64,000 nucleotides of DNA, from positions 18,094 through 82,093 of the forward strand of contig CAVVNQ010000021.1 in assembly GCA_963749705.1 (NCBI GenBank), written 5' to 3'. Shown piece after piece: positions 15,412 through 64,000 of this stretch. Source of the DNA: an uncultured Chloroflexia bacterium. GTDB lineage: Bacteria; Chloroflexota; Limnocylindria; Limnocylindrales; CSP1-4. The notes under the pieces are model-generated. The model did no database searches, was not told where the DNA came from, and was given only the letters and a program-made list of their open reading frames with translations. The first letter of the stretch is position 1. The number at the start of each line of letters is the position of its first letter. Both the position numbers and the translations under genes were made by a program.

Positions 15412-18400
15412 TCAGGGGCCGGGAGCCGCAGCGCCGCCCTCCTCGAGACCCAGCCGGATCGCGACCGCGGCGGCCTCGACCCGTCCGGACACGCCGAGCT
15501 TGGACAGGATGTTGCCGACGTGCACGCCCACGGTCTTCTGGCTGATGAACAGCCGGTCGCCGATCTCCCGGTTGGTGCGGCCCTTCGCGATCCACGCGAG
15601 CACCTCGAGCTCGCGCTTGGACAGCCCGAACGTGTCCCCGCCCGCCGGGGTTCGTGCGCCGCCGGGGCCCGGGACCGGCGGCGGTCCCGACGCCTGGACG
15701 ACGGGGCCGGGCGCAACCGAGGTTCGCGGCTGGACGGGCGCCGGCGCCGGTGCCTCGAGCATCGCGTCGACCTCGGGCGGCAGCGTGATCAGGGCACGTC
15801 CTCCCAGGTCGCGGAGGGCCCGCAGCAGCGGCCGGGCGTGCAGGGCCATCGCGAGGTCCACCGCACGGATCAGGGGTTCCCGTGCCTCGGCGCGCGCGAG
15901 CCGGGCGTCGGTCCTGACCCTGGTGCCCGCCGCGCTGCCGGCGATGGCCAGGTTGAGGCTCGCCTCCGCCTGGCGCCACAGGGCGCGCGCCTCGCGGTAC
16001 GGATCGCCGAGCTCCTGCCACCTCGCCGCCAGGCTTGCCCACCGCGCCGGGTCGTCCCGGCCATGGAGCCGCTCGTGGAACGCGCGCGCGGTGGCCAGGC
16101 TGGTACCGGGCTCGCGACCGGCGCTCGCCGGCGCCTCCAGGCCGGCGCGGGCCACGGCGGCCTCCGCCTCGGCCAGCATCCGGCCCGCGCGCTCCCGCGA
16201 GGCGGCCACGTCCGCGATCCGGCGCTTCTCGAGCGCGGCGGCCACGATCGCCGACTCGACCTCGAGCGCGGTCGCCGCCATCCGCGCGACGAGGACCCAG
16301 TCCTCCGTCCCGCGCAGGCGTGCCCAGCCACGCTCGATCGCGCGGCGCGCGTCGGCGAGGTCACCGCTCCACATCGCGTACGACGCGGTCGCCTGGTAGG
16401 CGGGGACGGCGAACTGGAGATCACCGCCCGTCTCGAGCTCGACCAGGATCCGGCCCAGCAGCCGGCCCGCCTCCTCGCCGGCCTCCGACTCGATCTCGAC
16501 GAGCACCAGGTTGATCAGGGCGTTGACGAACGGCACGCCGGCGGGGCTCCAGTCCAGCGCCCGGAGGCTCAGCTCTCGCGCCTCCGACCATCGCCCCACG
16601 TCGACCAGCAGCCCGGCGACGTTGCCGCCCAGCAGGTTGCCGTAGATCGCGTCGAGGTCGTTGGCGCGCGCCTCCTCCATGTCCCGGAAGGCGACGTCGA
16701 TCGCCTCCTGCTGCCGCCCGAGCAGCTCCAGCACGACCGCCATGTTCGCGCCGGCCCGCCACCACTCCTCCATCAGGCCGAGGGCGCGCGAACGCTCGAC
16801 CGCCTGCTCGAGGATCGGCAGCGCGGACTCCGGATCGTCGCCCCAGCCCTTGACCACCGCGAGCGTCGTCATGGCATGGATCGCCTCGGGCTCGGCCGAT
16901 GGGCCCAGGCCGTCCGTGATCGCGAGCGCCTCGGTTGCCGCGCGCTCGGCGTCGCGGAACGCGCCCGCGATCATCCGCTCCTGGGCAAGGAGCGCGAGGA
17001 TCCGGGCGCGCTCGATCGACGGTGCAGCCGGCACGACGTCCGCCGCTCGCCGGAGCGCCGTCGTGGCGCCGGCGGCATCGCCCGCCGCCAGCCGGTAGCG
17101 TCCGAGCCGCGCCTCGAGGACCCCGTGCCGTACGCGATCGCTCCGCTCGCGCAGCGCCCCGATCGCCGCCTCCGCGTAGGCAACCGCGCGGGTCGGGCGG
17201 AGCGCGGCCAATGCGGCCTCCGCCGCCTCGTCCTGGAGACCGCCGGTCACCTCGTCAGCGAGCCCGTCATCCTCGGGCTGCGGGAGCTCGAGCGCGATCT
17301 CGAACGCGGCCAGCGCGTCCTCGGGCGCATCGACGGTCATCGCCAGGCGGCCCGCGCGGATCGCGGCGTCGCGCGCCTCCGGCAGCCGGTGCGCCGCGCG
17401 CCAGTGCATGGCCGCCACGATGGGCACGTCCTCGAACGCCCGGGCCACCGCGGCGCGGTACCGTGGCAGCTGCGTCGGCAGCAGGTCGCCGACCACGGCC
17501 CGGGCGACCATCTCGTGACGGATCCGCATCCGGCCCTCGGCGCCGGCGCGCACGAAGCCGTGCTCCAGCGCCTCGTCGAGACCGGCCGAGAGGTCGGCGT
17601 CCATCAGCGTTCCGGCGCGCCTGGGCAGGGACGTCGAGCGCGGCGGGAGGCGGGTCTGGGGCCCGGCCTCGAACGTCGCGGCGGTGAGCGCCAGCTGGCT
17701 GCGATCCATCGCGCGCTCGGCCGGTGCCATCAGCCGCAGCACCCGCCGGCACTCGGGAGATCGTCGCTGGAGCCGGGCCGCGACGAGGTCCGACAGCGTC
17801 CCGGTGAGGGTCGCGTTGCGAACCTCGCGCCGCGCGGCGACCAGCTCCTCGACCACCATCGGCGAGCCACCCGAGCGCTCCGAGACGAGGACCACGATCG
17901 AGGCCGAGGGTCGCTCGCCCTCGATGCCCTCGATCATCCGCGCGATCTCCCGGCGAGCCATGGGCTGGAGCTCGATGTTGACCGGCGGGCGGAGCCCGCC
18001 CTCGATGATCGCGAGGTTCTCGCGCAGCGGGTGCTCGCGCGTCATGCGGTCCGGCTGGTAGGTGACGATGAGGGTCAGTCGCTCGTCCCGCGCGATCCGG
18101 GCGACGAACGTGGCGAATGCCCGGGTGGCGGCGTCGGCGACATGGAGGTCCTCGAGCACGATCACGAGGGGCTGCTCGACGGCAAGCCGCCCCAGCCAGC
18201 TCAGGAGCGCTGCGAGGGCCCTGGGTTGCCGGCGCTCCGGATCGGCGAGCGCGCTGACCGGCGGCGCCGACAGCTCCGCCGCGAGCTCGGGCATCCCGGG
18301 CAGGGCGAGCAGCAGGGAGCGCGAATCCCTGCGGAGCAGCCCCAGCCGCTCATCGCGGGGACGGGACGAGAGCACCGGTCCCAGCGCCTCGAGCACGGCG

Positions 18401-55597: not shown

Positions 55598-56332
55598 ATG
55601 CTGCACGGCGGACCCAGCCTGTACGGCGTCTCGGCACCCCGGATCCTGATCGTCGACGACGATCCGAACCTGCTGGTGATCCTCGCCGACCAGCTGCGCG
55701 CGGACGGGTACGAGGTGGTCACCGCGCGGGACGGCGACGAGGCGCTGCGACGCCTGTCCCAGCAATGGCCGGATCTGCTCGTGATCGACATGCTGATGCC
55801 GCGGATGGACGGGCTCACGCTCGCCCGCGAGGTCAAGGCGCGGGCCGACCTCCCGATCATCGTCCTGTCGGCGATCGACACCGCCGATTCGAAGGCGGAC
55901 CTGCTCGAGGAGGTCGCCGAGGACTACATCACCAAGCCGTACCACTACCCGGAGCTGCGGGCGCGGATCCAGCGAGTGCTGCGCCGGCTCGGCGACCGGG
56001 TGCCACGGCAGCGGCTGGAGCTGGGGCCGAACCTGTCGCTCGAGCTCCACCGCCGGGAGGCGATCGTGAGCGGCAACGTCGTGTCGCTGACGCCCACCGA
56101 GTCGCGCCTGCTGTACGCGCTGGCCGCGAACCTCGGCCAGACGGTGACAACCGAGACGCTGCTCGCCCGCGGCTGGGTCGACACCGAGGACGCCGACCCC
56201 AGCTACGTCTGGGTGACGATGCGTCGCCTGCGCCAGAAGGTCGAGGTCGATCCCGCCAGGCCGGTCCACCTGCTCACGGTCCGGGGCATCGGGTACCGGC
56301 TCGTCACCGCGCAGCCGGCGTCGGGCGCGTGA
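55598..56332 (+). CDS. OmpR-family response regulator
   Basis: ILIVDDD, IDMLMP.MDG, DYITKP, LTPTE, RLRQK.E, TVRGIGY. Confidence 0.93.
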   Translation: MLHGGPSLYGVSAPRILIVDDDPNLLVILADQLRADGYEVVTARDGDEALRRLSQQWPDLLVIDMLMPRMDGLTLAREVKARADLPIIVLSAIDTADSKADLLEEVAEDYITKPYHYPELRARIQRVLRRLGDRVPRQRLELGPNLSLELHRREAIVSGNVVSLTPTESRLLYALAANLGQTVTTETLLARGWVDTEDADPSYVWVTMRRLRQKVEVDPARPVHLLTVRGIGYRLVTAQPASGA

Positions 56333-56405
56333 CCCGGGCGCGGGCACGAGACGCAGGGCGCGGGCACGCGACCCCGGATGCAGGCATGACCCCGGGCGCG
56401 CGCAC

Positions 56406-57869
56406 GTGACACAGGACGCGGACGCGGGCGGCGCCGCGACGTCCGAACCCGCCGGCTCACGACCCGGCTACCGCCGCTCCGGGCCTGGCTTCCGGGCACG
56501 CCTCACGCTCGGGCTGATCTCGGCGGCGGTGCTGCCGGTCGCCGGGTTCGGCATCGTGGTGCTCGTCGTGACGGGCTTCGACCAGGGTGGCGACACCACC
56601 GTCGCCAGGGTCCTGCTGCTCGCGATCGCGGTCGCCGTCGTGTTCGGCGTCCTCCTCGCCGCCATCCTCGCCGCCGACCTGGGCGCGCCGCTGCGCCAGA
56701 TCGCCCGTGCGGTCGAGCAGGTGTCCTCGGGTGACCTGTCGACCCCGCTCGACCTCCCGGGCGACGACGAGTTCAGCCGCCTGGCCGAGAGCCACAACCG
56801 GCTCGCCCGCGTGCTCGAGCGCCGCAACCGCGAGCTGCGGCGGGTCCTCGATGCGCTCGCCGAGACGACCCTCCAGGAGCGGCCCGACGTCCTCGCCCGA
56901 CGCGCCGGCGACCGGGCGCGGGCCGTGTTCGGGATGGTCGACTGCGAGGTCGCGCTCGTCGACCCGGCGCAGATCGAGGAGGAGGAGGTCGTCCCCGGCG
57001 AGCCACGTCCGGTGCGGGCCGAGCTTGCCGCCGCCGGTGGGGTGCTCGGCGCGCTGGTCGGGCACGTGCCCGCGACGCGGACCTGGGAGCGCGCCGACCA
57101 GGACCTGTTCGAGCTGTACGCGATCGAGATCGCGGCAGCCATGTCCAATGCGCAGCTGTACGCGCGCGTCGAGCAGCAGAATGCCCGGCTGGTCGCGCTG
57201 GACGAAGCCAAGGACGACTTCCTGCGCGGCGTGTCGCACAACCTCCAGACGCCGCTGGCGAGCATCCGCGGCTACGCCCAGCAGCTGGAGGCCGAGACTC
57301 CTGACCGGCGGCTGGGGATCATCACCGAGCAGGCGGACCGGCTGTCCCGGATGGTGCGCCAGCTGCTGACCGTCAGCCGGATCCAGTCGGGCGTGCTCCG
57401 CCCGCGGCTCGAGGTGTTCTCTCCGTCGGCGCGCGTCCGCCGCACCTGGGAGGCGCTGGGCGCGGGGGAGGTGCCGTTCACGGTCGACGACCGCTCGGCC
57501 GGCTGGCTCGCGCTCGCCGACCCGGACCAGCTCGACCAGGTGCTGTGGGCGCTCCTGGACAACGCGGTCAGCTATGGCGGCCGGGCGGCGGTCGACGTGA
57601 CCATCACCATCGACCCGCCCACCTCTGACCTCGCGATCACGATCGCCGACCACGGACCGGGCGTGACGAGCGCGGACCGGGAGCGCCTGTTCCAGCGCTT
57701 CGAGCGGGGTGCGACACGGCCCACCGGCGAGGGCTCCGGTCTCGGCCTCTACGTGTCGCGCGAGCTGTGCCGGGCGATGAGCGGCGACCTGGTGCTCGAG
57801 CCGGACGAGCCCGGCCGAGGCGCGGCCCTCACGATCCACCTGCCGGCGGAGGCGCCCGAGGAATCGTGA
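56406..57869 (+). CDS. Sensor histidine kinase (2 TM, HAMP, GAF-like, HisKA, HATPase)
   Basis: VSHNLQTPL, LLDNAVSY, DHGPG, FQRF, GSGLGLY. Confidence 0.92.
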   Translation: MTQDADAGGAATSEPAGSRPGYRRSGPGFRARLTLGLISAAVLPVAGFGIVVLVVTGFDQGGDTTVARVLLLAIAVAVVFGVLLAAILAADLGAPLRQIARAVEQVSSGDLSTPLDLPGDDEFSRLAESHNRLARVLERRNRELRRVLDALAETTLQERPDVLARRAGDRARAVFGMVDCEVALVDPAQIEEEEVVPGEPRPVRAELAAAGGVLGALVGHVPATRTWERADQDLFELYAIEIAAAMSNAQLYARVEQQNARLVALDEAKDDFLRGVSHNLQTPLASIRGYAQQLEAETPDRRLGIITEQADRLSRMVRQLLTVSRIQSGVLRPRLEVFSPSARVRRTWEALGAGEVPFTVDDRSAGWLALADPDQLDQVLWALLDNAVSYGGRAAVDVTITIDPPTSDLAITIADHGPGVTSADRERLFQRFERGATRPTGEGSGLGLYVSRELCRAMSGDLVLEPDEPGRGAALTIHLPAEAPEES

Positions 57870-57950
57870 ACCGGCGCGGCCGTCGCCGCGCCGGTCAACG
57901 ATCTGGATCCGAGGGCGGGTCGTGCGCCGGAGCGCCACCGACCCCCGTGA

Positions 57951-58937
57951 TCAGTTGATGAGCTTCAGGATGTAGAACCCACCGTACGTCGAGGTGCCGA
58001 ACCCGGCCCCATTGACATCCAGCTTCTGGTCCTGGCGGTCGCCGGTCTCGAAGTAGCCGGTCAGGTACCCGTTCGAGCCGTTGGCGTGGGCGCCGGTGAG
58101 GACGAACGAGACAAAGCCGACGTAGTTGCCGCTCTTGTCGACGATCGGAACGGGGAAGGTGATCGGGGCAAGGCTCTCGAGCGTGGCCGTGATGTTGTTC
58201 ATCTGGCCACTGTTGTGCTGGGCGACGTAGCAGCCGAACTCGAGCGTCACCTCGAACGAGGCAGAGCGGGCAAGGTAGTCCTGGAGGTCGCTGTCGTTGA
58301 CGTTGCCCGTGTCCTCGCATTTCTTGTCGTAGCCGAAGTCCGTCCACGCGAACTCGGTGGCGGTCTGCGGCGTGTCGCCCTCCGATGACGTCGGATGGTT
58401 GAAGCTGCACGGGTTGTTCTTGTCGGTGCAGACCTTCGCGTGACCGGTATCGTCGAAAGCCTCCTTGGACAGGATGAACGGCGCCGGTCCGGTGGCCGTG
58501 TCCGGCCAGCCGGTCTTTGACGTGGCCGTGGTGCTGACATCCCAGACCGGCATGCCAACCACGCCCGCAAACGCGTTCTGGTGCGGCGCGGTGATCCCGA
58601 CGGTGACCTGGACGCCCGCCGCACCCGGGTTGAGCACCTGTCCGGGGCAGTTCTCGCAGGTGACGTCAACGGTCACGCCGTTGACGCCGTGCTCGAAGCC
58701 ATTCTCCTTGGCGACGGTGCGCGCGGTGCCGACCCAGTCGGCCGTTCCCTGGTTGACGATCAGGTCGTTGGCGGCCGCGAGGGCGGCCAGGTCGACGGCG
58801 TTCTGCTCCGACCGGCGCTGGGCGAACGAGCTGCCGCCGTCCAGGATCAGGCCGACCATGGCGATGATGGCCACCAGCGCCAGCGCAAACACCACGATGA
58901 TCTGGCCGCGTTCGCGGCCCTGTCGCGGATTGTCCAT
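57951..58937 (-). CDS. TadG-like minor pilin / pilus assembly protein (cassette A)
   Basis: RGQIIVVFALALV...LDGG...R..QNAVDLAALA. Alternative start 58955. Confidence 0.88.
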   Translation of the reverse strand: MDNPRQGRERGQIIVVFALALVAIIAMVGLILDGGSSFAQRRSEQNAVDLAALAAANDLIVNQGTADWVGTARTVAKENGFEHGVNGVTVDVTCENCPGQVLNPGAAGVQVTVGITAPHQNAFAGVVGMPVWDVSTTATSKTGWPDTATGPAPFILSKEAFDDTGHAKVCTDKNNPCSFNHPTSSEGDTPQTATEFAWTDFGYDKKCEDTGNVNDSDLQDYLARSASFEVTLEFGCYVAQHNSGQMNNITATLESLAPITFPVPIVDKSGNYVGFVSFVLTGAHANGSNGYLTGYFETGDRQDQKLDVNGAGFGTSTYGGFYILKLIN

Positions 58938-58951
58938 GGGGTCGTTCCTTC

Positions 58952-59389
58952 TCATTGGAGCTGCACGCTGGTTGAAGACGAGAACAGGGTCCACGTCCCG
59001 ACGAGGCCGAGGAGCGGCGTGATCGGGTCGTAGGTCGCGGCGATCTCCACCCGGATCCAGTCGCCCGGCTGGCAGGTCGTGGCGATCACGGTCCCGGCGA
59101 TGTCGACGCACGTGATCTTTGGATCGCCGAGGTTGGGGATGAGGCCCTTCTGGGTCGCGATCACGGCCTTGGTCTCGGTGCTCCGGCCGGCGGCCGTCGT
59201 GAAGTCGGGGCCGGCGTGCGCCGCTGTCACCCTCGCGATCTCACGGGCGGCCTGGGCCACGCCGTTGTACTGGTAGATGGCGCGACCGAAGTCGAACACG
59301 CCCATCATCAGCACCAGGAACACGATGATCGCGAGCGAGAACTCGACCAGGGCCTGGCCGTGCTGATCGGGATGTCGTCGAGTCTTCAT
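58952..59389 (-). CDS. TadE-like pseudopilin (cassette A)
   Basis: GQALVEFSL...DFGR......AARE..R. Confidence 0.9.
   Translation of the reverse strand: MKTRRHPDQHGQALVEFSLAIIVFLVLMMGVFDFGRAIYQYNGVAQAAREIARVTAAHAGPDFTTAAGRSTETKAVIATQKGLIPNLGDPKITCVDIAGTVIATTCQPGDWIRVEIAATYDPITPLLGLVGTWTLFSSSTSVQLQ
59318..59360. repeat. 43-bp perfect inverted repeat, copy 1 (partner at 61663-61705)
   Basis: Its reverse complement is cggccaggccctggtcgagttctcgctcgcgatcatcgtgttc, identical to 61663-61705. Confidence 0.9.
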
Positions 59390-60324
59390 CAGCTCACCGG
59401 CACGTCGATCGTGCCCTGCCAGTTGACCGGGACCCCGTAGACCGAGATCGCCAGAGTCACCGGGAAGTACTTGTTGTTGCCACTCCCCGAGGAGCCGGCC
59501 CCGCTGTACGTGTAGGTGGTGCTCGCGCCGGATCCGCTGCCACCGTCACCGAAGCTCCAGGTGTAGGTGAACGTGCAGCCGGGCTGCGGGTTCACGGTCG
59601 GGGCCGTGAAGGTGAACAGCGTTCCGGGGTTGCCCGGACCGTGGTAGTAGCCACCGCTGGTTGGGCTCACCGTCATGCTGCCGGTCACGGTCGGGGTCAC
59701 GCACACGGGCGTGGCGGTAGGTGTCGGCGTCGCGCTCCCGGTCGGCGTGGGCGCCGGCGTCGCGGAGCCCGACGGTGTGGGCGTCGGACTGGCCGTGGCC
59801 GACGGCGATGGCGTCGGGGTGGATCCGGCCGCAGGCTCGGGCGCGACGCCCAGGTAGGCGACCGCGGAGGAGGAGATGCTGATCGTCTGACCCCCGAAGA
59901 ACGAGGCGAGCAGCGGCGTGATCAGCGTGAACTTGCCGGTCACCTTCACCGTGACCGTGTCACCCACGGTGGGGTCGGACGGACACGGGCTCGGCGAGCA
60001 GACCAGGGTCACGTCGGACGGGGTGATCGAGTAGAACGAGCCCTTGGCCTCGTTGATGACCAGGCAGATGACCCGGTTCGTCGTGGCGTTGCAGGGCTGC
60101 GTGTTGTCGAACGAGGTGGGGTTGCGGGACGCCTCGAGGGCGCCCTCCTTGGCCGCGTTGGCGATCGTGATCTGGCTGTAGAACATGCGCCCGAGGTCGA
60201 GCGCCGAGGCGAACAGGACAAGGAGCACCGGCAGAATCAGGGCAAGCTCGACCAGGGCCTGCCCTCGCGACCGTGGCCGGAGTGCGAGGCGCGGTCGCCA
60301 GCTTGTTGGGAACCTGTGGTGCAT
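59389..60324 (-). CDS. TadE-like pseudopilin with a Pro/Thr linker and C-terminal PKD domain (cassette A)
   Basis: RGQALVELAL...DLGR...NAAKEGA, PT-rich linker, YTWSFGDG...TYTY. Confidence 0.88.
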   Translation of the reverse strand: MHHRFPTSWRPRLALRPRSRGQALVELALILPVLLVLFASALDLGRMFYSQITIANAAKEGALEASRNPTSFDNTQPCNATTNRVICLVINEAKGSFYSITPSDVTLVCSPSPCPSDPTVGDTVTVKVTGKFTLITPLLASFFGGQTISISSSAVAYLGVAPEPAAGSTPTPSPSATASPTPTPSGSATPAPTPTGSATPTPTATPVCVTPTVTGSMTVSPTSGGYYHGPGNPGTLFTFTAPTVNPQPGCTFTYTWSFGDGGSGSGASTTYTYSGAGSSGSGNNKYFPVTLAISVYGVPVNWQGTIDVPVS

Positions 60325-60595
60325 CTGGATTGACCTGCAGCGGGTTGTTGCCTGGCGATCGTCGAGGTCGCCCCTTGCACCCTGACTTGAAACGGTGCGC
60401 GGGTGCATAGCCCAAAGCGGGCAGTTCCCGGAGAAGGAAGTACCGCTGGTCAACGACCCAGCGCGACGACGGGACAGAGCCGCCGCCAGTGGTGCCCGGG
60501 CGGAAACCGGCCGCCAACCCGAGCGTCCGGGTGCACCGAAGGTCCCGGAGGGGTCATAGGCCCCTTTGCTCGTTTCGTGGCCGAGACGCACCACG

Positions 60596-60621
60596 GCAAG
60601 GTTGACCGCAAGGTCAGGACG
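60596..60621 (+). promoter_or_regulatory. GCAAGG-N6-GCAAGGTC-AGGACG motif upstream of Tad cassette B
   Basis: The same motif recurs at 63489-63516 upstream of cassette C. Confidence 0.55.
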
Positions 60622-60671
60622 TCACCTTCCGCAATGCCAACTGCATCACTGCATCGCCGGGGGAAACGTCG

Positions 60672-61646
60672 ATGTCGTCCTCATGGCCCGTATGGGCCGG
60701 TATTCGCGCACGCGTAAATCGGAAGCGACTCGCACCAAGATCGTTGCGAGCCTCGCCGCCCGGAAGGGTTCCGCGTCCATCCAGGGCGGGACCGCCCCCG
60801 GGCAGATGGGGCCGCCACCGCGGTCGCGACAACGCCCGCGGCCAGTCGCTGGTCGAGCTCGCGCTGGTCACGCCCATCCTGCTGGTGCTGCTCCTCGGCG
60901 CCGTGGACATGGGCCGCCTGTTCTACGCTGAGATCGCGGTCACCAACGCGGCCCGGGAAGGCGCGATGGTCGCGGCGTCGAGCCCCACCTCGTTTGTCGG
61001 TGGCGCGGCCTGCGACGCGAGCACCAACGCCGTGACGTGCGCGGCCACCCGCGAGGGGCAGGGCGGGTTCGTCACGGTCAGCCCGGCCGATGTAGCGATG
61101 ACCTGTAGCCCGTCGTGCACGAAGGCCTACGGGACCACCGTCACGGTCACCGTCACCGGGCACTTCCAGGTCCTCACGCCGCTGATGTGGATCTTCACTG
61201 GTGGCCCGAACGTGGCATTCAACCGATCGGCCGATGCCGACGTCGTGATCACCCCGACCGCCGGCGGTTTCGCAACCCCGTCGCCGTCGCCGACGGCCTC
61301 ACCGACGCCGAGCTCGTCCTCCTCTCCGACGCCGACGCCGACCACGAGCCCCACGCCGGCACCCACGCCGACGTGCGCACCACCTCTGGTGCTGTTCACC
61401 ACGTACCAGCAGAACAAGAACAAGGCGATCGAGTTCACGAGCACCTCGACGCCGACCTCCGGGACATGCGCGATCAGCTACTGGCGCTGGGACTTCGGCG
61501 ACGGTGCCACGAGCGCCGGGGCCGTCGGCACCACATCCCATGACTACGGCAAGGCGAATGAAGGCTTGACCTTCAACGTCACGCTGACGGTCACCACGCC
61601 CAGCGGCACGTTCTCGTACGTCCGCGCCGTGACGACGCTGTCATGA
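60672..61646 (+). CDS. TadE-like pseudopilin with a Pro/Thr linker and C-terminal PKD domain (cassette B)
   Basis: RGQSLVELAL...DMGR...NAAREGA, PT linker, WRWDFGDG...HDY...VTLTVT. Start uncertain. Confidence 0.88.
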   Translation: MSSSWPVWAGIRARVNRKRLAPRSLRASPPGRVPRPSRAGPPPGRWGRHRGRDNARGQSLVELALVTPILLVLLLGAVDMGRLFYAEIAVTNAAREGAMVAASSPTSFVGGAACDASTNAVTCAATREGQGGFVTVSPADVAMTCSPSCTKAYGTTVTVTVTGHFQVLTPLMWIFTGGPNVAFNRSADADVVITPTAGGFATPSPSPTASPTPSSSSSPTPTPTTSPTPAPTPTCAPPLVLFTTYQQNKNKAIEFTSTSTPTSGTCAISYWRWDFGDGATSAGAVGTTSHDYGKANEGLTFNVTLTVTTPSGTFSYVRAVTTLS

Positions 61647-62056
61647 GCAGACGAAACGAATCCGGCCAGGCCCTGGTCGAGTTCTCGCTCGCGATCATCG
61701 TGTTCGTGGTGATGCTGCTCGGGCTGTTCGACCTCGGACGCGGCGTCTACATGTACAACGGCGTGTCCGAGGCCGCCCGCGAGATCGCTCGCCGGACGAT
61801 CGTGCATCCGGGGATCGTCCTGGGTGCGACGAGCGAGACGCAGGCGGCGATCGACATCCAGAAGGGACTCATCCCCGAGCTTGGCGATCCCGTCTTCGCG
61901 TGCGTGGACGTGGCCGGCGCCGTTGTCACACACACCCCATGCCAGTCCGGTGACTACGTGCGGGTGACGATCGGCGCTTCGTACGCGCCGCTGTCGCTCC
62001 TCGGCATCGGTGGCCCGATCAACTTGTCGTCCTCCGCCAGCATGCTCATGCCATGA
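61643..62056 (+). CDS. TadE-like pseudopilin (cassette B)
   Basis: GQALVEFSL...DLGR......AAREIAR. ATGA overlap with the previous gene. Confidence 0.9.
   Translation: MSRRNESGQALVEFSLAIIVFVVMLLGLFDLGRGVYMYNGVSEAAREIARRTIVHPGIVLGATSETQAAIDIQKGLIPELGDPVFACVDVAGAVVTHTPCQSGDYVRVTIGASYAPLSLLGIGGPINLSSSASMLMP
61663..61705. repeat. 43-bp perfect inverted repeat, copy 2
   Basis: Reverse complement of 59318-59360. Confidence 0.9.
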
Positions 62057-63093
62057 AAGCGAGATCCGAGATGCCCATAACCTCGTCAACCCGGGCGACC
62101 CGGGCCCAGGATGGCCAGATCCTCGTGTTGTTCGCGCTTGGCCTGATCGCGATGATCGCGATGGTCGGCCTGGTGCTCGACGGCGGCGGGGCGTTTGCCC
62201 AGCGTCGCGAACAGCAGAACGGCGCCGATCTGGCTGCCATTGCGGGCGCAAACGCATACATGAACGCGCCAGGGTCGGTGGCTGCCAAGACTGCCGCCGC
62301 CCAAGCCGCTGCCGCGCAGGCGGCGTCCCGCAACGGCTATGCCGACGGCGCCGATGGCACGTCGGTCACGGTCGATGTGACGCTGCTTTCGTCAGGGGCG
62401 TCGGTCAAGGTTGGCATGACCAAGCCGCATCCGAACTCCTTCACCCGGATCGTCGGCATGAACTCGTGGGATGTTTCGGTCACCGCGACCGCGGTCGCCG
62501 GGGTCATCGACACCGCCGTGGGCGCGGCGCCATGGACGATGAACATCAACGCCTTCAACCCCGATGGCACGCCCAAGTACACGGAATCAAATCCGCAGAA
62601 CTTCGGCGAGACCAACGGCGACTACCCGACGAGCGAGCTCGACATCGCATGGACGGACTTCAACGGCAGCAACAACGTCAACGCGAACGAAGTCCGGGAC
62701 ATCATCCAGGGCAGCAACGTGGTGGTGGCAACCTTTGACTTCGAGCAATACCTTGGCCAGCACAACAACGGCAACATGACAACGGAGTACGGAGAGGTGC
62801 AGCAGTACCTCGCCGGCCACATCGTTCCCGTGCCGATCGTTGGTCCAGGTACACCGGACTGCACCACCCCGGCCGGTCACCAGGACGGCTGCTTCAAGGG
62901 CTGGGCGCTGTTCTACGTGATCAGCGCCCAGGGCGGCAGCGCAAAGGACATCACTGGGTACTTCCTGAGCAACTTCATCAACCTGCCGCTCACCGTGGGC
63001 GAGTGCACCGCGGCCGAGCAGGCCGCCGGCACGTGCGGGCTGATCGATCCGAGCAACGTGTTCGGTGCCTACGTGGTCCGCCTATCGGACTGA
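62053..63093 (+). CDS. TadG-like minor pilin / pilus assembly protein (cassette B)
   Basis: DGQILVLFAL...LDGG...R..QNGADLAA.AGA. Shares AWTDF, QHN.G.M and PVPIV with the cassette A paralog. Confidence 0.88.
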   Translation: MKARSEMPITSSTRATRAQDGQILVLFALGLIAMIAMVGLVLDGGGAFAQRREQQNGADLAAIAGANAYMNAPGSVAAKTAAAQAAAAQAASRNGYADGADGTSVTVDVTLLSSGASVKVGMTKPHPNSFTRIVGMNSWDVSVTATAVAGVIDTAVGAAPWTMNINAFNPDGTPKYTESNPQNFGETNGDYPTSELDIAWTDFNGSNNVNANEVRDIIQGSNVVVATFDFEQYLGQHNNGNMTTEYGEVQQYLAGHIVPVPIVGPGTPDCTTPAGHQDGCFKGWALFYVISAQGGSAKDITGYFLSNFINLPLTVGECTAAEQAAGTCGLIDPSNVFGAYVVRLSD

Positions 63094-63136
63094 CGGGTCG
63101 CGCGCCCGGGGATCGGGTAGGTCCGTCGAATTCCAA

Positions 63137-63171
63137 ACACCCGCCCGTTCCTCGGGGGATCGGGCGGGTGT
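63137..63171. terminator. Hairpin between convergent genes
   Basis: ACACCCGCCCG...CGGGCGGGTGT, an 11-bp perfect stem. Confidence 0.7.
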
Positions 63172-63183
63172 ACCTATGTCGAG

Positions 63184-63403
63184 CTACTGGGCGGTGGCGC
63201 CCACCGTAGCGCGGGCTGATGCGGGGCGCTCAGCCGCGCGGGACCAGATCCGGTGCATCGGATCGCCGGCGACGAACGCCGCCAGGGCGGCGCCAAGGAC
63301 CGGGTCCGACGAGCTCGGGCATGCCCGTGATGGACACGACCAGAGCCCACGCATACCAGGTGACGTAGAACCAGAGCAGGGCAGCTGCGAGGCGCTTCTT
63401 CAT
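63184..63403 (-). pseudogene. Small 2-TM protein gene with an apparent 1-nt insertion frameshift (or a sequencing error)
   Basis: MKKRLAAALLWFYVTWYAWALVVSITGMPELVGP continues in another frame as VLGAALAAFVAGDPMHRIW...*. The span is 220 nt (3n+1). Confidence 0.6.
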
Positions 63404-63488
63404 GGGCTGCAGGATTGCGCCACCAGCGAGCGGCGCGCCTATGGCCCGTTCGTACCCGCCCACAGTTCGGGTGCAACCACGCGCCGAT

Positions 63489-63530
63489 GCAAGGCGCACG
63501 GCAAGGTCCCAGGACGATAGTCCTATGACC
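63489..63530 (+). promoter_or_regulatory. GCAAGG-N6-GCAAGGTCCCAGGACG motif plus AGGAC-GATA-GTCCT palindrome upstream of Tad cassette C
   Basis: Matches the motif at 60596-60621. Confidence 0.55.
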
Positions 63531-63565
63531 GTCGGGGGACGAGCATCGGGGAGTGATCGATCCGT

Positions 63566-64000
63566 ATGCCCTCGCCCCAACTTCCGCACTTCACCAGCGT
63601 GCGTCCGAGGAGCAAGCGATCCCAGGGACTTGGCCAGTCTCTGGTCGAGTTCGCCCTTGTATTTCCCGTCCTGCTGCTGCTGCTAATGATCAGCCTCGAC
63701 TTTGGGCGGGTCTACTTGGGCTGGGTCAACCTCCAAAACATGGCTCGGATCGCCGCGAACTTCGCTGCGAACAACCCCACAGCCTGGACGGGTGCCGGTG
63801 ATCCCACCGCCCAGACTCAGTACCGCAACGAGATCATCAACGACGCACGCGCAACGAACTGCCAGCTGCCGTCCTCAGGCGGGACGCCGGTCGTGCCGAC
63901 GCCGTCGTTCGCGGATACCGGCGGCAATGGCAGCACGACCGATATCGCCGACACGGCGACCGTCGAGATCTCGTGCACCTTCTCGATCATCACACCGATC
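63566..64000 (+). CDS. TadE-like pseudopilin, first gene of a third cassette (3'-truncated; absent from the ORF track)
   Basis: Hand translation MPSPQLPHFTSVRPRSKRSQGLGQSLVEFALVFPVLLLLLMISLDFGR...NMARIAA, open to the window end. Confidence 0.88.
   Translation, partial: MPSPQLPHFTSVRPRSKRSQGLGQSLVEFALVFPVLLLLLMISLDFGRVYLGWVNLQNMARIAANFAANNPTAWTGAGDPTAQTQYRNEIINDARATNCQLPSSGGTPVVPTPSFADTGGNGSTTDIADTATVEISCTFSIITPI

Follow-up and report, generated by a model that had tools for sequence, protein, structure and literature searches.

In canonical Tad/Flp (type IVc) pilus loci, including that of Litorilinea aerophila of the Chloroflexota, the minor pilin genes tadE-tadF-tadG are carried within the operon, according to the available part of the corresponding report (10.1101/2025.08.19.671072). 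In 2025, Herrou et al. described, in the available text of their paper, four paralogous TadE/F/G-like clusters in Myxococcus xanthus that encode the Kil Tips 1-4 (KilL/KilM/KilN), and demonstrated that each Tip is sufficient for pilus polymerisation and that all four are transcribed (PMC12075869). The Discussion of that paper called the selection of a tip by the Tad machine unclear, and its main text, in which 'Chloroflex' is absent, restricted tip1-4 to Myxococcota (PMC12075869). The accessible part of a preprint on Bdellovibrio describes tad genes that are scattered and a single tadG standing apart, with no tip array (10.64898/2026.07.08.737194). The subject of the present analysis is an array of three-gene minor pilin cassettes found at the end of a 64,000-nucleotide stretch of DNA (hereafter 'the window', to which all positions without a contig or locus name refer), spanning positions 18,094 to 82,093 of contig CAVVNQ010000021.1 (assembly GCA_963749705.1) of an uncultured Chloroflexia bacterium.

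Each complete cassette of this array encodes two TadE-type proteins and one larger TadG-type protein, and each is preceded by its own promoter carrying a common direct repeat (the 'box'). The array is probably best understood as a set of fixed promoter slots loaded with such triads, in which each triad supplies a heterotrimer as the tip of a Tad/Flp pilus, the pilus is assembled by a single machinery operon located elsewhere, the slots respond to a shared activator, and whole triads are subject to replacement. A preliminary description of this DNA, made from its sequence alone, had proposed a library of tips for one shared Tad machine and had considered the arrangement uncharacterised for Tad pili. 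The library has held up, given several cassettes per single TadB/TadC pair, their position in trans and a model of a cognate trimer; its novelty has not, since four paralogous Tip clusters were already shown in the available text on Myxococcus (PMC12075869). The principle of interchangeable tips is therefore already published, and what is added here is the apparent membership of cassettes and machinery in one regulon, together with the exchange of cassettes slot by slot. The open-access literature searched yielded no prior description of tip arrays for this lineage and none of the box or the slots.

Comparison with described pilus systems

Like the Kil Tips, as far as the available text describes them, the present system combines one Tad machine with several paralogous three-gene clusters, whose products are predicted to form heterotrimers in which helices are bundled and the large subunit bears a variable distal domain. 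Extra Flp-like pilins are another shared trait (KilK/KilO in Myxococcus, two to four flp genes in the genus studied here). The Kil system, according to the same text, belongs to a diderm predator, is linked to a type III secretion system (T3SS*), carries Tip4 inside the kil cluster and comprises four conserved tip types. In contrast, the genome studied here (G000; 3.6 Mb, 22 contigs, 88% complete) yielded no match to a secretin (PF00263) or to FHIPEP, the T3SS and flagellar export gate, and no tip genes at its machinery locus; its cassettes instead form a tandem array at a fixed site beside a response regulator and sensor kinase pair, and many tip types are exchanged between strains behind conserved promoters that bear a common repeat box. 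The RcpA secretin is confined to diderms, and its absence is expected in a monoderm lineage. The locus works like the Myxococcus Tips, but it is not the Kil predation system proper, to which a linked needleless T3SS* and FHA-protein cluster belong, in view of the missing FHIPEP match in this 88%-complete genome and the position of its two FHA matches, which are on a different contig and unlinked to the tad loci.

The likeness to canonical Tad systems extends to Flp, CpaB/RcpC, CpaE/TadZ, CpaF/TadA, TadB, TadC, an A24 prepilin peptidase and minor pilins of TadE/TadG type; unlike those systems, the minor pilins here lie wholly outside the operon and are multiplied, the peptidase is unlinked, and a second CpaF carries a Rid-like domain. 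Several priming or tip clusters per machine are reportedly also encoded by the type IVa minor-pilin/PilY1 clusters of M. xanthus. The present system differs from these, and from GspI-J-K of the type II secretion system (T2SS), in belonging to another branch of the type IV filaments and in lacking a PilY1-like non-pilin adhesin.

Anatomy and distribution of the cassettes

Domain assignments within the window were made with Pfam (E-values of 1e-10 to 1e-15 for the TadE and Tad families) and supported all seven pilin open reading frames (ORFs) of the preliminary description, which form two complete, divergently transcribed cassettes, A and B, with the shared gene order TadE-PKD, TadE, TadG, and the first TadE of a third, cassette C. 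Cassette A, on the reverse strand, encodes a TadE protein followed by a Pro/Thr linker and a PKD domain (59389..60324; PF07811, PF18911), a short TadE (58952..59389; PF07811, E=3e-14) and a TadG-like large minor pilin (57951..58955; PF13400, E=1e-10). Cassette B, on the forward strand, encodes the corresponding TadE-linker-PKD protein (60672..61646), which has a 56-residue leader before its G|Q site, a short TadE (61643..62056) and a TadG-like pilin (62053..63093), all assigned by Pfam, the last with a core that fold prediction depicts as holding an inserted distal domain of ~165 residues. Cassette C, also on the forward strand, is represented by its first TadE (63566..64000; PF07811, E=2.5e-13) and is incomplete because the last base of the window is also the last base of the contig (C21); the final 20-40 bases of that contig have no second occurrence in the assembly, and four DNA runs gave no extension past its end. 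Among the short contigs from these runs, which belong to one study and may be the source of the assembly, several match A and B without a difference, but none covers the whole array, and they are not counted as support.

The preliminary description had ascribed a prepilin site of the form G|Q-xx-(V)-E/F to all seven proteins. All seven do carry G|Q, but the Glu5 motif is confined to the five TadE proteins (G|Q-x-L-V-E), the two TadG proteins having G|Q-I-[IL]-V-[VL]-F, without Glu5. Conserved N-termini and diverging distal parts, also described at the outset, are evident in the comparison of A with B, which are 60/73/69% identical (TadE-PKD/TadE/TadG) over the first 45 mature residues and 42/51/35% identical in their distal parts. 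As DNA the two cassettes can be aligned only in patches, at 68-76% identity, and they are thus old paralogues rather than a duplicated haplotype.

The array is bounded on its left by an OmpR/PhoB-family response regulator (55598..56332, forward strand; Pfam Response_reg and Trans_reg_C) and a HAMP-HisKA-HATPase sensor kinase (56406..57869, forward strand). An array lies directly after this pair in G000 and in 18 relatives, with purE-purK upstream wherever the stretch extends that far and with a SulP transporter on the far side in the loci of nine relatives; arrays on long contigs span the interval from the regulator-kinase pair to SulP without machinery genes. A census of 40 minor-pilin loci of 22 relatives, together with G000, gave 81 units, which comprise 66 of the form E-E-G, 12 E-G and three fragments, the largest number of cassettes per genome in the loci examined being seven (in G032, which has one TadB/TadC pair). 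Among 14 cassette proteins picked by hand, the appended parts were one to three PKD domains, or vWA, TIG or DUF5979 domains, of kinds typical of adhesins. Homologues of the cassette B TadG derive nearly all from records of Chloroflexota/Chloroflexia or Ca. Limnocylindrales, and all are from metagenome-assembled genomes. The association of arrays with the regulator-kinase site is imperfect, however, in that five other relatives carry the site without cassettes, and in three of them boxed cassettes are located elsewhere.

Near-identical cassette copies (95-100%) were also seen within single genomes, in G001 (L017:5557-11082) and G029 (L016 versus L031), and reflect either recent duplication or duplication in assembly.

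Tips encoded in trans to a single machinery operon

Across the genome, six TadE matches and three true TadG proteins were counted beside two CpaF-type ATPases, one TadB/TadC pair, one A24 peptidase and two CpaB proteins, a comparison of cassette with machinery numbers that the preliminary description had named as a check on its reading. The sole machinery operon lies on another contig (C3:11977-18619) with the order flp-flp-cpaB-cpaE-cpaF-tadB-tadC, in which CpaE/TadZ is a receiver-MinD protein, CpaB/RcpC is matched by TIGR03177 above its cut-off, and no minor pilin gene adjoins. The Flp matches fall below the Pfam cut-off (22-23 versus 32 bits), but a class III prepilin signal site is present and the genes recur in 20/20 relatives. 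Together with the A24 peptidase, whose one match (C8:197 kb) is unlinked to the tad loci, and with the TadE/TadG minor pilins and their class III signals, the components of a Tad/Flp system are accordingly found, four of them (Flp, CpaF/TadA, TadB and TadC) in one locus. No match to CpaF, TadB/TadC, Flp or A24 peptidase occurs anywhere on the array contig, which extends to the whole of C21 the earlier statement that none lies in the window, and no TadE or TadG was found within 11.5 kb around cpaF in the machinery loci of 20/20 relatives.

Tad-family matches are present in 35/36 genomes of the genus (1-10 each, cross-matches to TadE included), and a single weak match was found among 24 genomes of a small-genome sister family. 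T2SSF matches number exactly two in 22 of the 36 genus genomes, none in six and 3-10 in eight; where there are extra matches they belong partly to a second Tad set and partly to a different type IV system. A second TadB/TadC set was found in six genus genomes, so the use of one machine is not universal, which weighs against the general form of the proposal. Several genus genomes harbor a second, divergent Tad locus with TadE/TadG matches of its own (L034, L134, L135), and full-length T2SSE with two-domain T2SSF matches in G007, G008, G013 and G016 suggest a separate type IVa/T2SS-like system.

Several further features touch upon the machinery. A fourth minor pilin unit, tadE-tadG-cpaB2 (G000:C15:288823-292327, reverse strand; L005:5823-9327), lies beside a uvrB-like gene and lacks the box; the assembled tadG carries a frameshift here, while its orthologue in G032 is intact (632 aa). 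In G020 there is only a single match each to TadE and TadG, both apparently of the C15 type, so that a unit of this type may be a default tip. The second CpaF/TadA stands alone (G000:C9:18721-20898; L004:8725-10899, reverse strand) and is fused to a C-terminal Rid domain (RidA/YjgF, PF01042, E=2e-15), from which the catalytic arginine, to judge by eye, seems to be missing. The fusion is in frame in 10/10 relatives checked (61-76% identity), with no tadB/C match adjoining and no box upstream, and could act as a ligand-sensing motor or as a second (retraction) motor. Upstream of the flp genes (L002:8151-11864) are found two HisKA_3-type kinases, a NarL-type regulator (85-100% conserved) and a 54-aa pilin-like ORF, and a comF-like gene after tadC raises a possible link to competence. 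The near-identical flp genes number 2-4 per machinery operon in the genus (here 11977-12504 of L002) and six in L141, from another genus. Contig overlaps of 7-19 kb at 96-99.9% identity (C6/C22, C6/C14, C7/C17, C9/C18, C11/C15, C12/C18 and C15/C20) do not involve the array, and they inflate some gene counts.

A shared promoter box and a candidate regulator

Before all three cassettes, and before cpaB of the machinery operon, lies a direct repeat of 12-bp period, TGCAAGGT-N4-TGCAAGGT. The word GCAAGGT is enriched upstream of 78 units (40 observed, 3.4 expected), half-sites are spaced by 12 in 46 pairs and by 11 in one, and an A...T pair occupies the expected -10 box, 8 nt after the second repeat. 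When a position weight matrix was built without G000 and scanned over the whole G000 genome, cassette B ranked first (24.3), the flp-cpaB gap second, cassette C third (22.8) and cassette A fifth (20.5), and most lower matches were intragenic. The cpaB box, which was outside the training set of the matrix, is found in reverse orientation ~110 bp before cpaB in 19/20 relatives. A strict pattern, chosen after these sites had been seen, gave 28 matches in the 36 genus genomes (19 at cpaB, eight at cassettes and one after a kinase at a contig end), none in eight sister-family genomes, and two when reversed. Overall, the box precedes 47/54 array cassettes and 12/24 others, and its presence before both the cassettes and cpaB of the machinery suggests that they form one regulon.

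In its architecture, with tandem direct repeats over the -35 region that end 8 nt before the -10 box, the box resembles OmpR/PhoB- and SARP-type direct-repeat promoters such as the pho box; CtrA sites are likewise said to occur at pilA of Caulobacter. The adjacent OmpR-type regulator (55598-56332) is a candidate for the protein that binds it, a proposal drawn from gene neighbourhood: the regulator is 86-100% identical within the genus, and the regulator-kinase pair adjoins the array in other genera as well as in the 18 relatives. The distribution of orthologues (16/18 genus genomes queried, 0/11 sister-family genomes) is uninformative because the sister-family genomes are streamlined (~1.1 Mb). 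In G020 (89% complete), the cpaB box is present and no orthologue of the regulator was found.

A number of observations weigh against a single regulon governed by that protein. The period of 12 exceeds the 10-11 usual for OmpR/PhoB sites and the half-site differs from theirs; the regulator is assigned by synteny only and is one of 25 Trans_reg_C matches in the genome, and a NarL-type pair that flanks the machinery is an alternative candidate. No box was found before the regulator itself (score 5.4), or before the flp genes, the peptidase gene, the second cpaF or the C15 unit; comF and comEC (score 10.3) likewise have none. The box is missing from 7/54 array cassettes and from 12/24 others. A control matrix of period 15 also scores high in G000, owing to in-frame codon repeats. 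A looser pattern applied to 121 family genomes was only weakly enriched in raw number (89 matches versus 64 for the reversed control); of its 79 matches outside the genus, 43 were inspected, mostly on long contigs, and these fell at cassettes (19), at cpaB (ten), at a secreted-protein gene (two) and in other places (12, many of them intragenic), so that 14/43 are not at Tad genes.

That secreted-protein gene encodes a boxed protein of ~190 aa that Pfam leaves unmatched and whose N-terminus is signal-like (G000:C15:496047-496625, reverse strand, and C11:49266-49823, forward strand). It occurs in 19/121 family genomes; in 7/21 loci (two of which are one G000 locus assembled twice) the box is strong and the start codon falls at matrix position 45-47, and two further loci have a half-site at the same distance. 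The fixed distance of the start codon fits leaderless transcription and pins the -10 geometry, and the gene may be a further member of the regulon. A separate suggestion prompted by the repeated GCAAGG words, that of a c-di-GMP riboswitch, was rejected: Rfam reported nothing above the gathering score in 56000-64000, and only a tRNA in eight related loci.

Promoter slots and cassette replacement

The DNA that flanks the box sorts into classes, of which the three cassettes of the window represent one each. The class I slot, before cassette B (60595..60720, forward strand), contains the direct repeat (60595-60614) and a predicted -10 box (CACCTT, 60623-60628), and also spans a conserved leader, the ribosome site, the ATG at 60672 and the first prepilin-leader codons. 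The class II promoter, before cassette A (60358..60391, reverse strand), has its repeat at 60391-60372 and a predicted -10 box, GACGAT, at 60363-60358, and the class III promoter, before cassette C (63488..63545, forward strand), has its repeat at 63488-63507 and a predicted -10 box, GATAGT, at 63516-63521. The 35 classed promoters come from 16 genomes, and in none of these does any class occur twice (permutation P=1.25e-4, in a sample where kin genomes are not independent and 24 further boxes are unclassed).

TadG identity within one promoter class falls as low as 22-30%, and the class I promoter is kept before unrelated cassettes in relatives. In particular, G034 is 86% identical to the array locus over 7.8 kb, through purK, the response regulator, the kinase, cassette A and promoter I, and yet the cassette in its slot I is only 28-33% identical to B. 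In G009, A and B are matched at 85-96% and the class III promoter is kept, but the TadE in slot III is 49% identical to that of cassette C, which is itself closer (60-66%) to cassettes of other genomes. These two comparisons show the replacement of cassettes behind a retained promoter. The class I ribosome site, ATG and first leader codons are kept in frame with G|Q in 9/11 cassettes of several types, which places the junction within DNA that encodes a cleaved-off peptide. The 39 neighbouring ORFs (of at least 120 aa) examined in 19 array loci include one HNH domain and no member of a recombinase, integrase, invertase or transposase family.

A small hydrophobic ORF (63230..63403, reverse strand) without a Pfam match recurs in many arrays, where it points away from the class III promoter beside it; tblastn matches to it in relatives' arrays are 44-76% identical, and the relatives' reads differ by one base near 63302.

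Triads as inherited units and their predicted structure

Trees and identities for the triads were computed from 54/66 E-E-G cassettes, 12 frameshifted or truncated ones having been dropped. Distal identity has a median of 26-29% for pairs within a genome and of 65-71% for the best match in another genome. The trees of the three cassette members have 34-36/51 splits in common, where the null reaches at most 2-3; between them, 1-3 well-supported splits are in conflict. On this comparison of sequences, exchange involves the triad as a whole and takes place between lineages. Such congruence is expected from linkage alone, however, and together with the few conflicts it tempers any claim about assembly: it demonstrates co-inheritance, not binding specificity.

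Glu5 is found in 143/143 TadE and 0/77 TadG proteins; since GspK and PilX are likewise large capping subunits without Glu5, this is as expected of a capping subunit. A model of the cognate trimer of cassette B, for which modelling had been suggested in the preliminary description, scored 0.74, versus 0.01 for the best control, on a scale whose mark was reached by 116/157 solved and 2/215 mismatched pairs. The runs concur in at least 91% of contacts, with partner pLDDT (predicted local distance difference test) values of at least 80, and the modelled contacts involve the three N-terminal helices and C-terminal strands; the score may reflect the likeness of the trimer to solved minor-pilin complexes.

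In the TadG model of cassette B, the inserted domain comes before the final strand of the pilin core. The full protein aligns with GspK (GspI-J-K, PDB 3ci0) at Z 6.3 and a root-mean-square deviation of 3.7 over 96 residues, a middling Z that is tied with unrelated folds, the best overall being 7.0, to unrelated enzymes; the aligned residues span 22-325, a pattern that fits a pilin core split by an insertion. Foldseek gave no match to the full protein at E<=0.001. The distal domain alone (pLDDT 87.5) had a best Z of 3.5 and no Foldseek or PDB match, which does not by itself denote a new fold; in the ESM Atlas it led to unnamed clusters, and the secreted boxed protein led to a sub-0.9 lead.

Proposed mechanism and alternative explanations

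In the mechanism proposed here, an activator, most probably the adjacent OmpR-type regulator (both the binder and the sign of control being conjectural), would bind the direct repeat 8 nt before each -10 box, and the reversed repeat before cpaB would couple the supply of tips to that of the machinery. The three prepilins of a triad would be cut at G|Q by the single A24 peptidase found, as is known for these families, and would assemble as the modelled cognate trimer, with the Glu5-less TadG outermost. The distal domain of this subunit would be exposed, as would the tethered PKD domain, and the placement of the trimer at the pilus tip is proposed by analogy to the Myxococcus Tips and GspI-J-K. 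Any such trimer might then prime Flp polymerisation, so that a cell could display several tip types for different surfaces, adhesion being the presumed function. Over evolutionary time whole triads would be replaced behind the kept promoter, with the junction in or just before the cleaved leader, presumably by homologous recombination and under pressure either for new ligands or for escape from phage; Tad pili are known phage receptors.

That the tips serve Kil-like contact killing or DNA uptake instead of surface adhesion is unlikely. Flp-dependent transformation has reportedly been observed in Micrococcus, a comF-like gene follows the machinery operon and ComEC is present, and the only multi-tip Tad system to have been tested is, in the available text, that of a predator (PMC12075869). 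Against this stand the lack of a FHIPEP match in the 88%-complete genome, the FHA matches unlinked to tad loci, the absence of a box before comEC (10.3), the presence of ComEC in 2/3 sister-family genomes without Tad-family matches, and the adhesin-like character of the appended domains. It is decidedly improbable that there has been no exchange, with promoters conserved and cassettes diverging rapidly in place: the promoter classes do behave as orthologous slots and no recombinase is nearby, but orthologous cassette types are 60-95% identical across genomes, a single slot holds members of different clades, and in G034 cassette A is 65-79% and the regulator 100% identical while the occupant of slot I, at 28-33%, is closest to a G026 cassette, so that G034 and G009 largely refute this account. 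Equally improbable is a combinatorial scheme in which subunits of different cassettes mix freely and the array serves as a subunit pool; the conserved N-terminal helices (60-73%, A versus B), which make up most of the modelled interface, would permit it, but the trees of the three members agree apart from a few supported conflicts, and the interface also uses variable C-terminal strands.

Phase variation, in which one cassette at a time would be expressed through DNA inversion or a shufflon-like switch, is more doubtful still. Cassette order and orientation do vary among relatives, and divergent pairs are common, but each cassette has its own boxed promoter, the 39 neighbouring ORFs include no linked site-specific recombinase, and four DNA runs, a weak test on fragmentary contigs, revealed no credible inversion joint; the common box points to common activation rather than to one-at-a-time switching. 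The preliminary description had itself raised the prospect of a separate machinery for each cassette immediately beyond the window, or of a duplication produced by the assembly, and the contig does end within cassette C, in an assembly with contig overlaps of 7-19 kb. With A and B alignable in patches only, G009 collinear across both, and relatives' arrays on long contigs free of machinery genes, this explanation is refuted for the relatives and scarcely credible for G000.

The reading of the array as promoter slots loaded with whole triads can be carried further, into a recombinase-free 'slot and cartridge' system in which three or four differently tuned slots answer to one two-component activator that also controls the motor, and are reloaded from a large family-wide pool of triads through recombination at the leader junction. 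This extension is tentative, and rather less likely to be right than wrong. Were it true, a cell could pick its tips according to conditions, and the population would turn over its tip specificity, gaining new substrates or escape from phage.

Implications for Tad pilus biology

The array makes visible a cis-regulatory layer of tip selection, composed of one box, distinct promoter classes, a candidate regulator and predicted starts. Although the relatives are all uncultured genomes, the predicted promoters and regulator are amenable to study in vitro or with the help of a heterologous host. The finding adds a soil lineage that is apparently not predatory to those with adaptable Tad tips, and in this lineage the tip repertoire is much larger and mobile.

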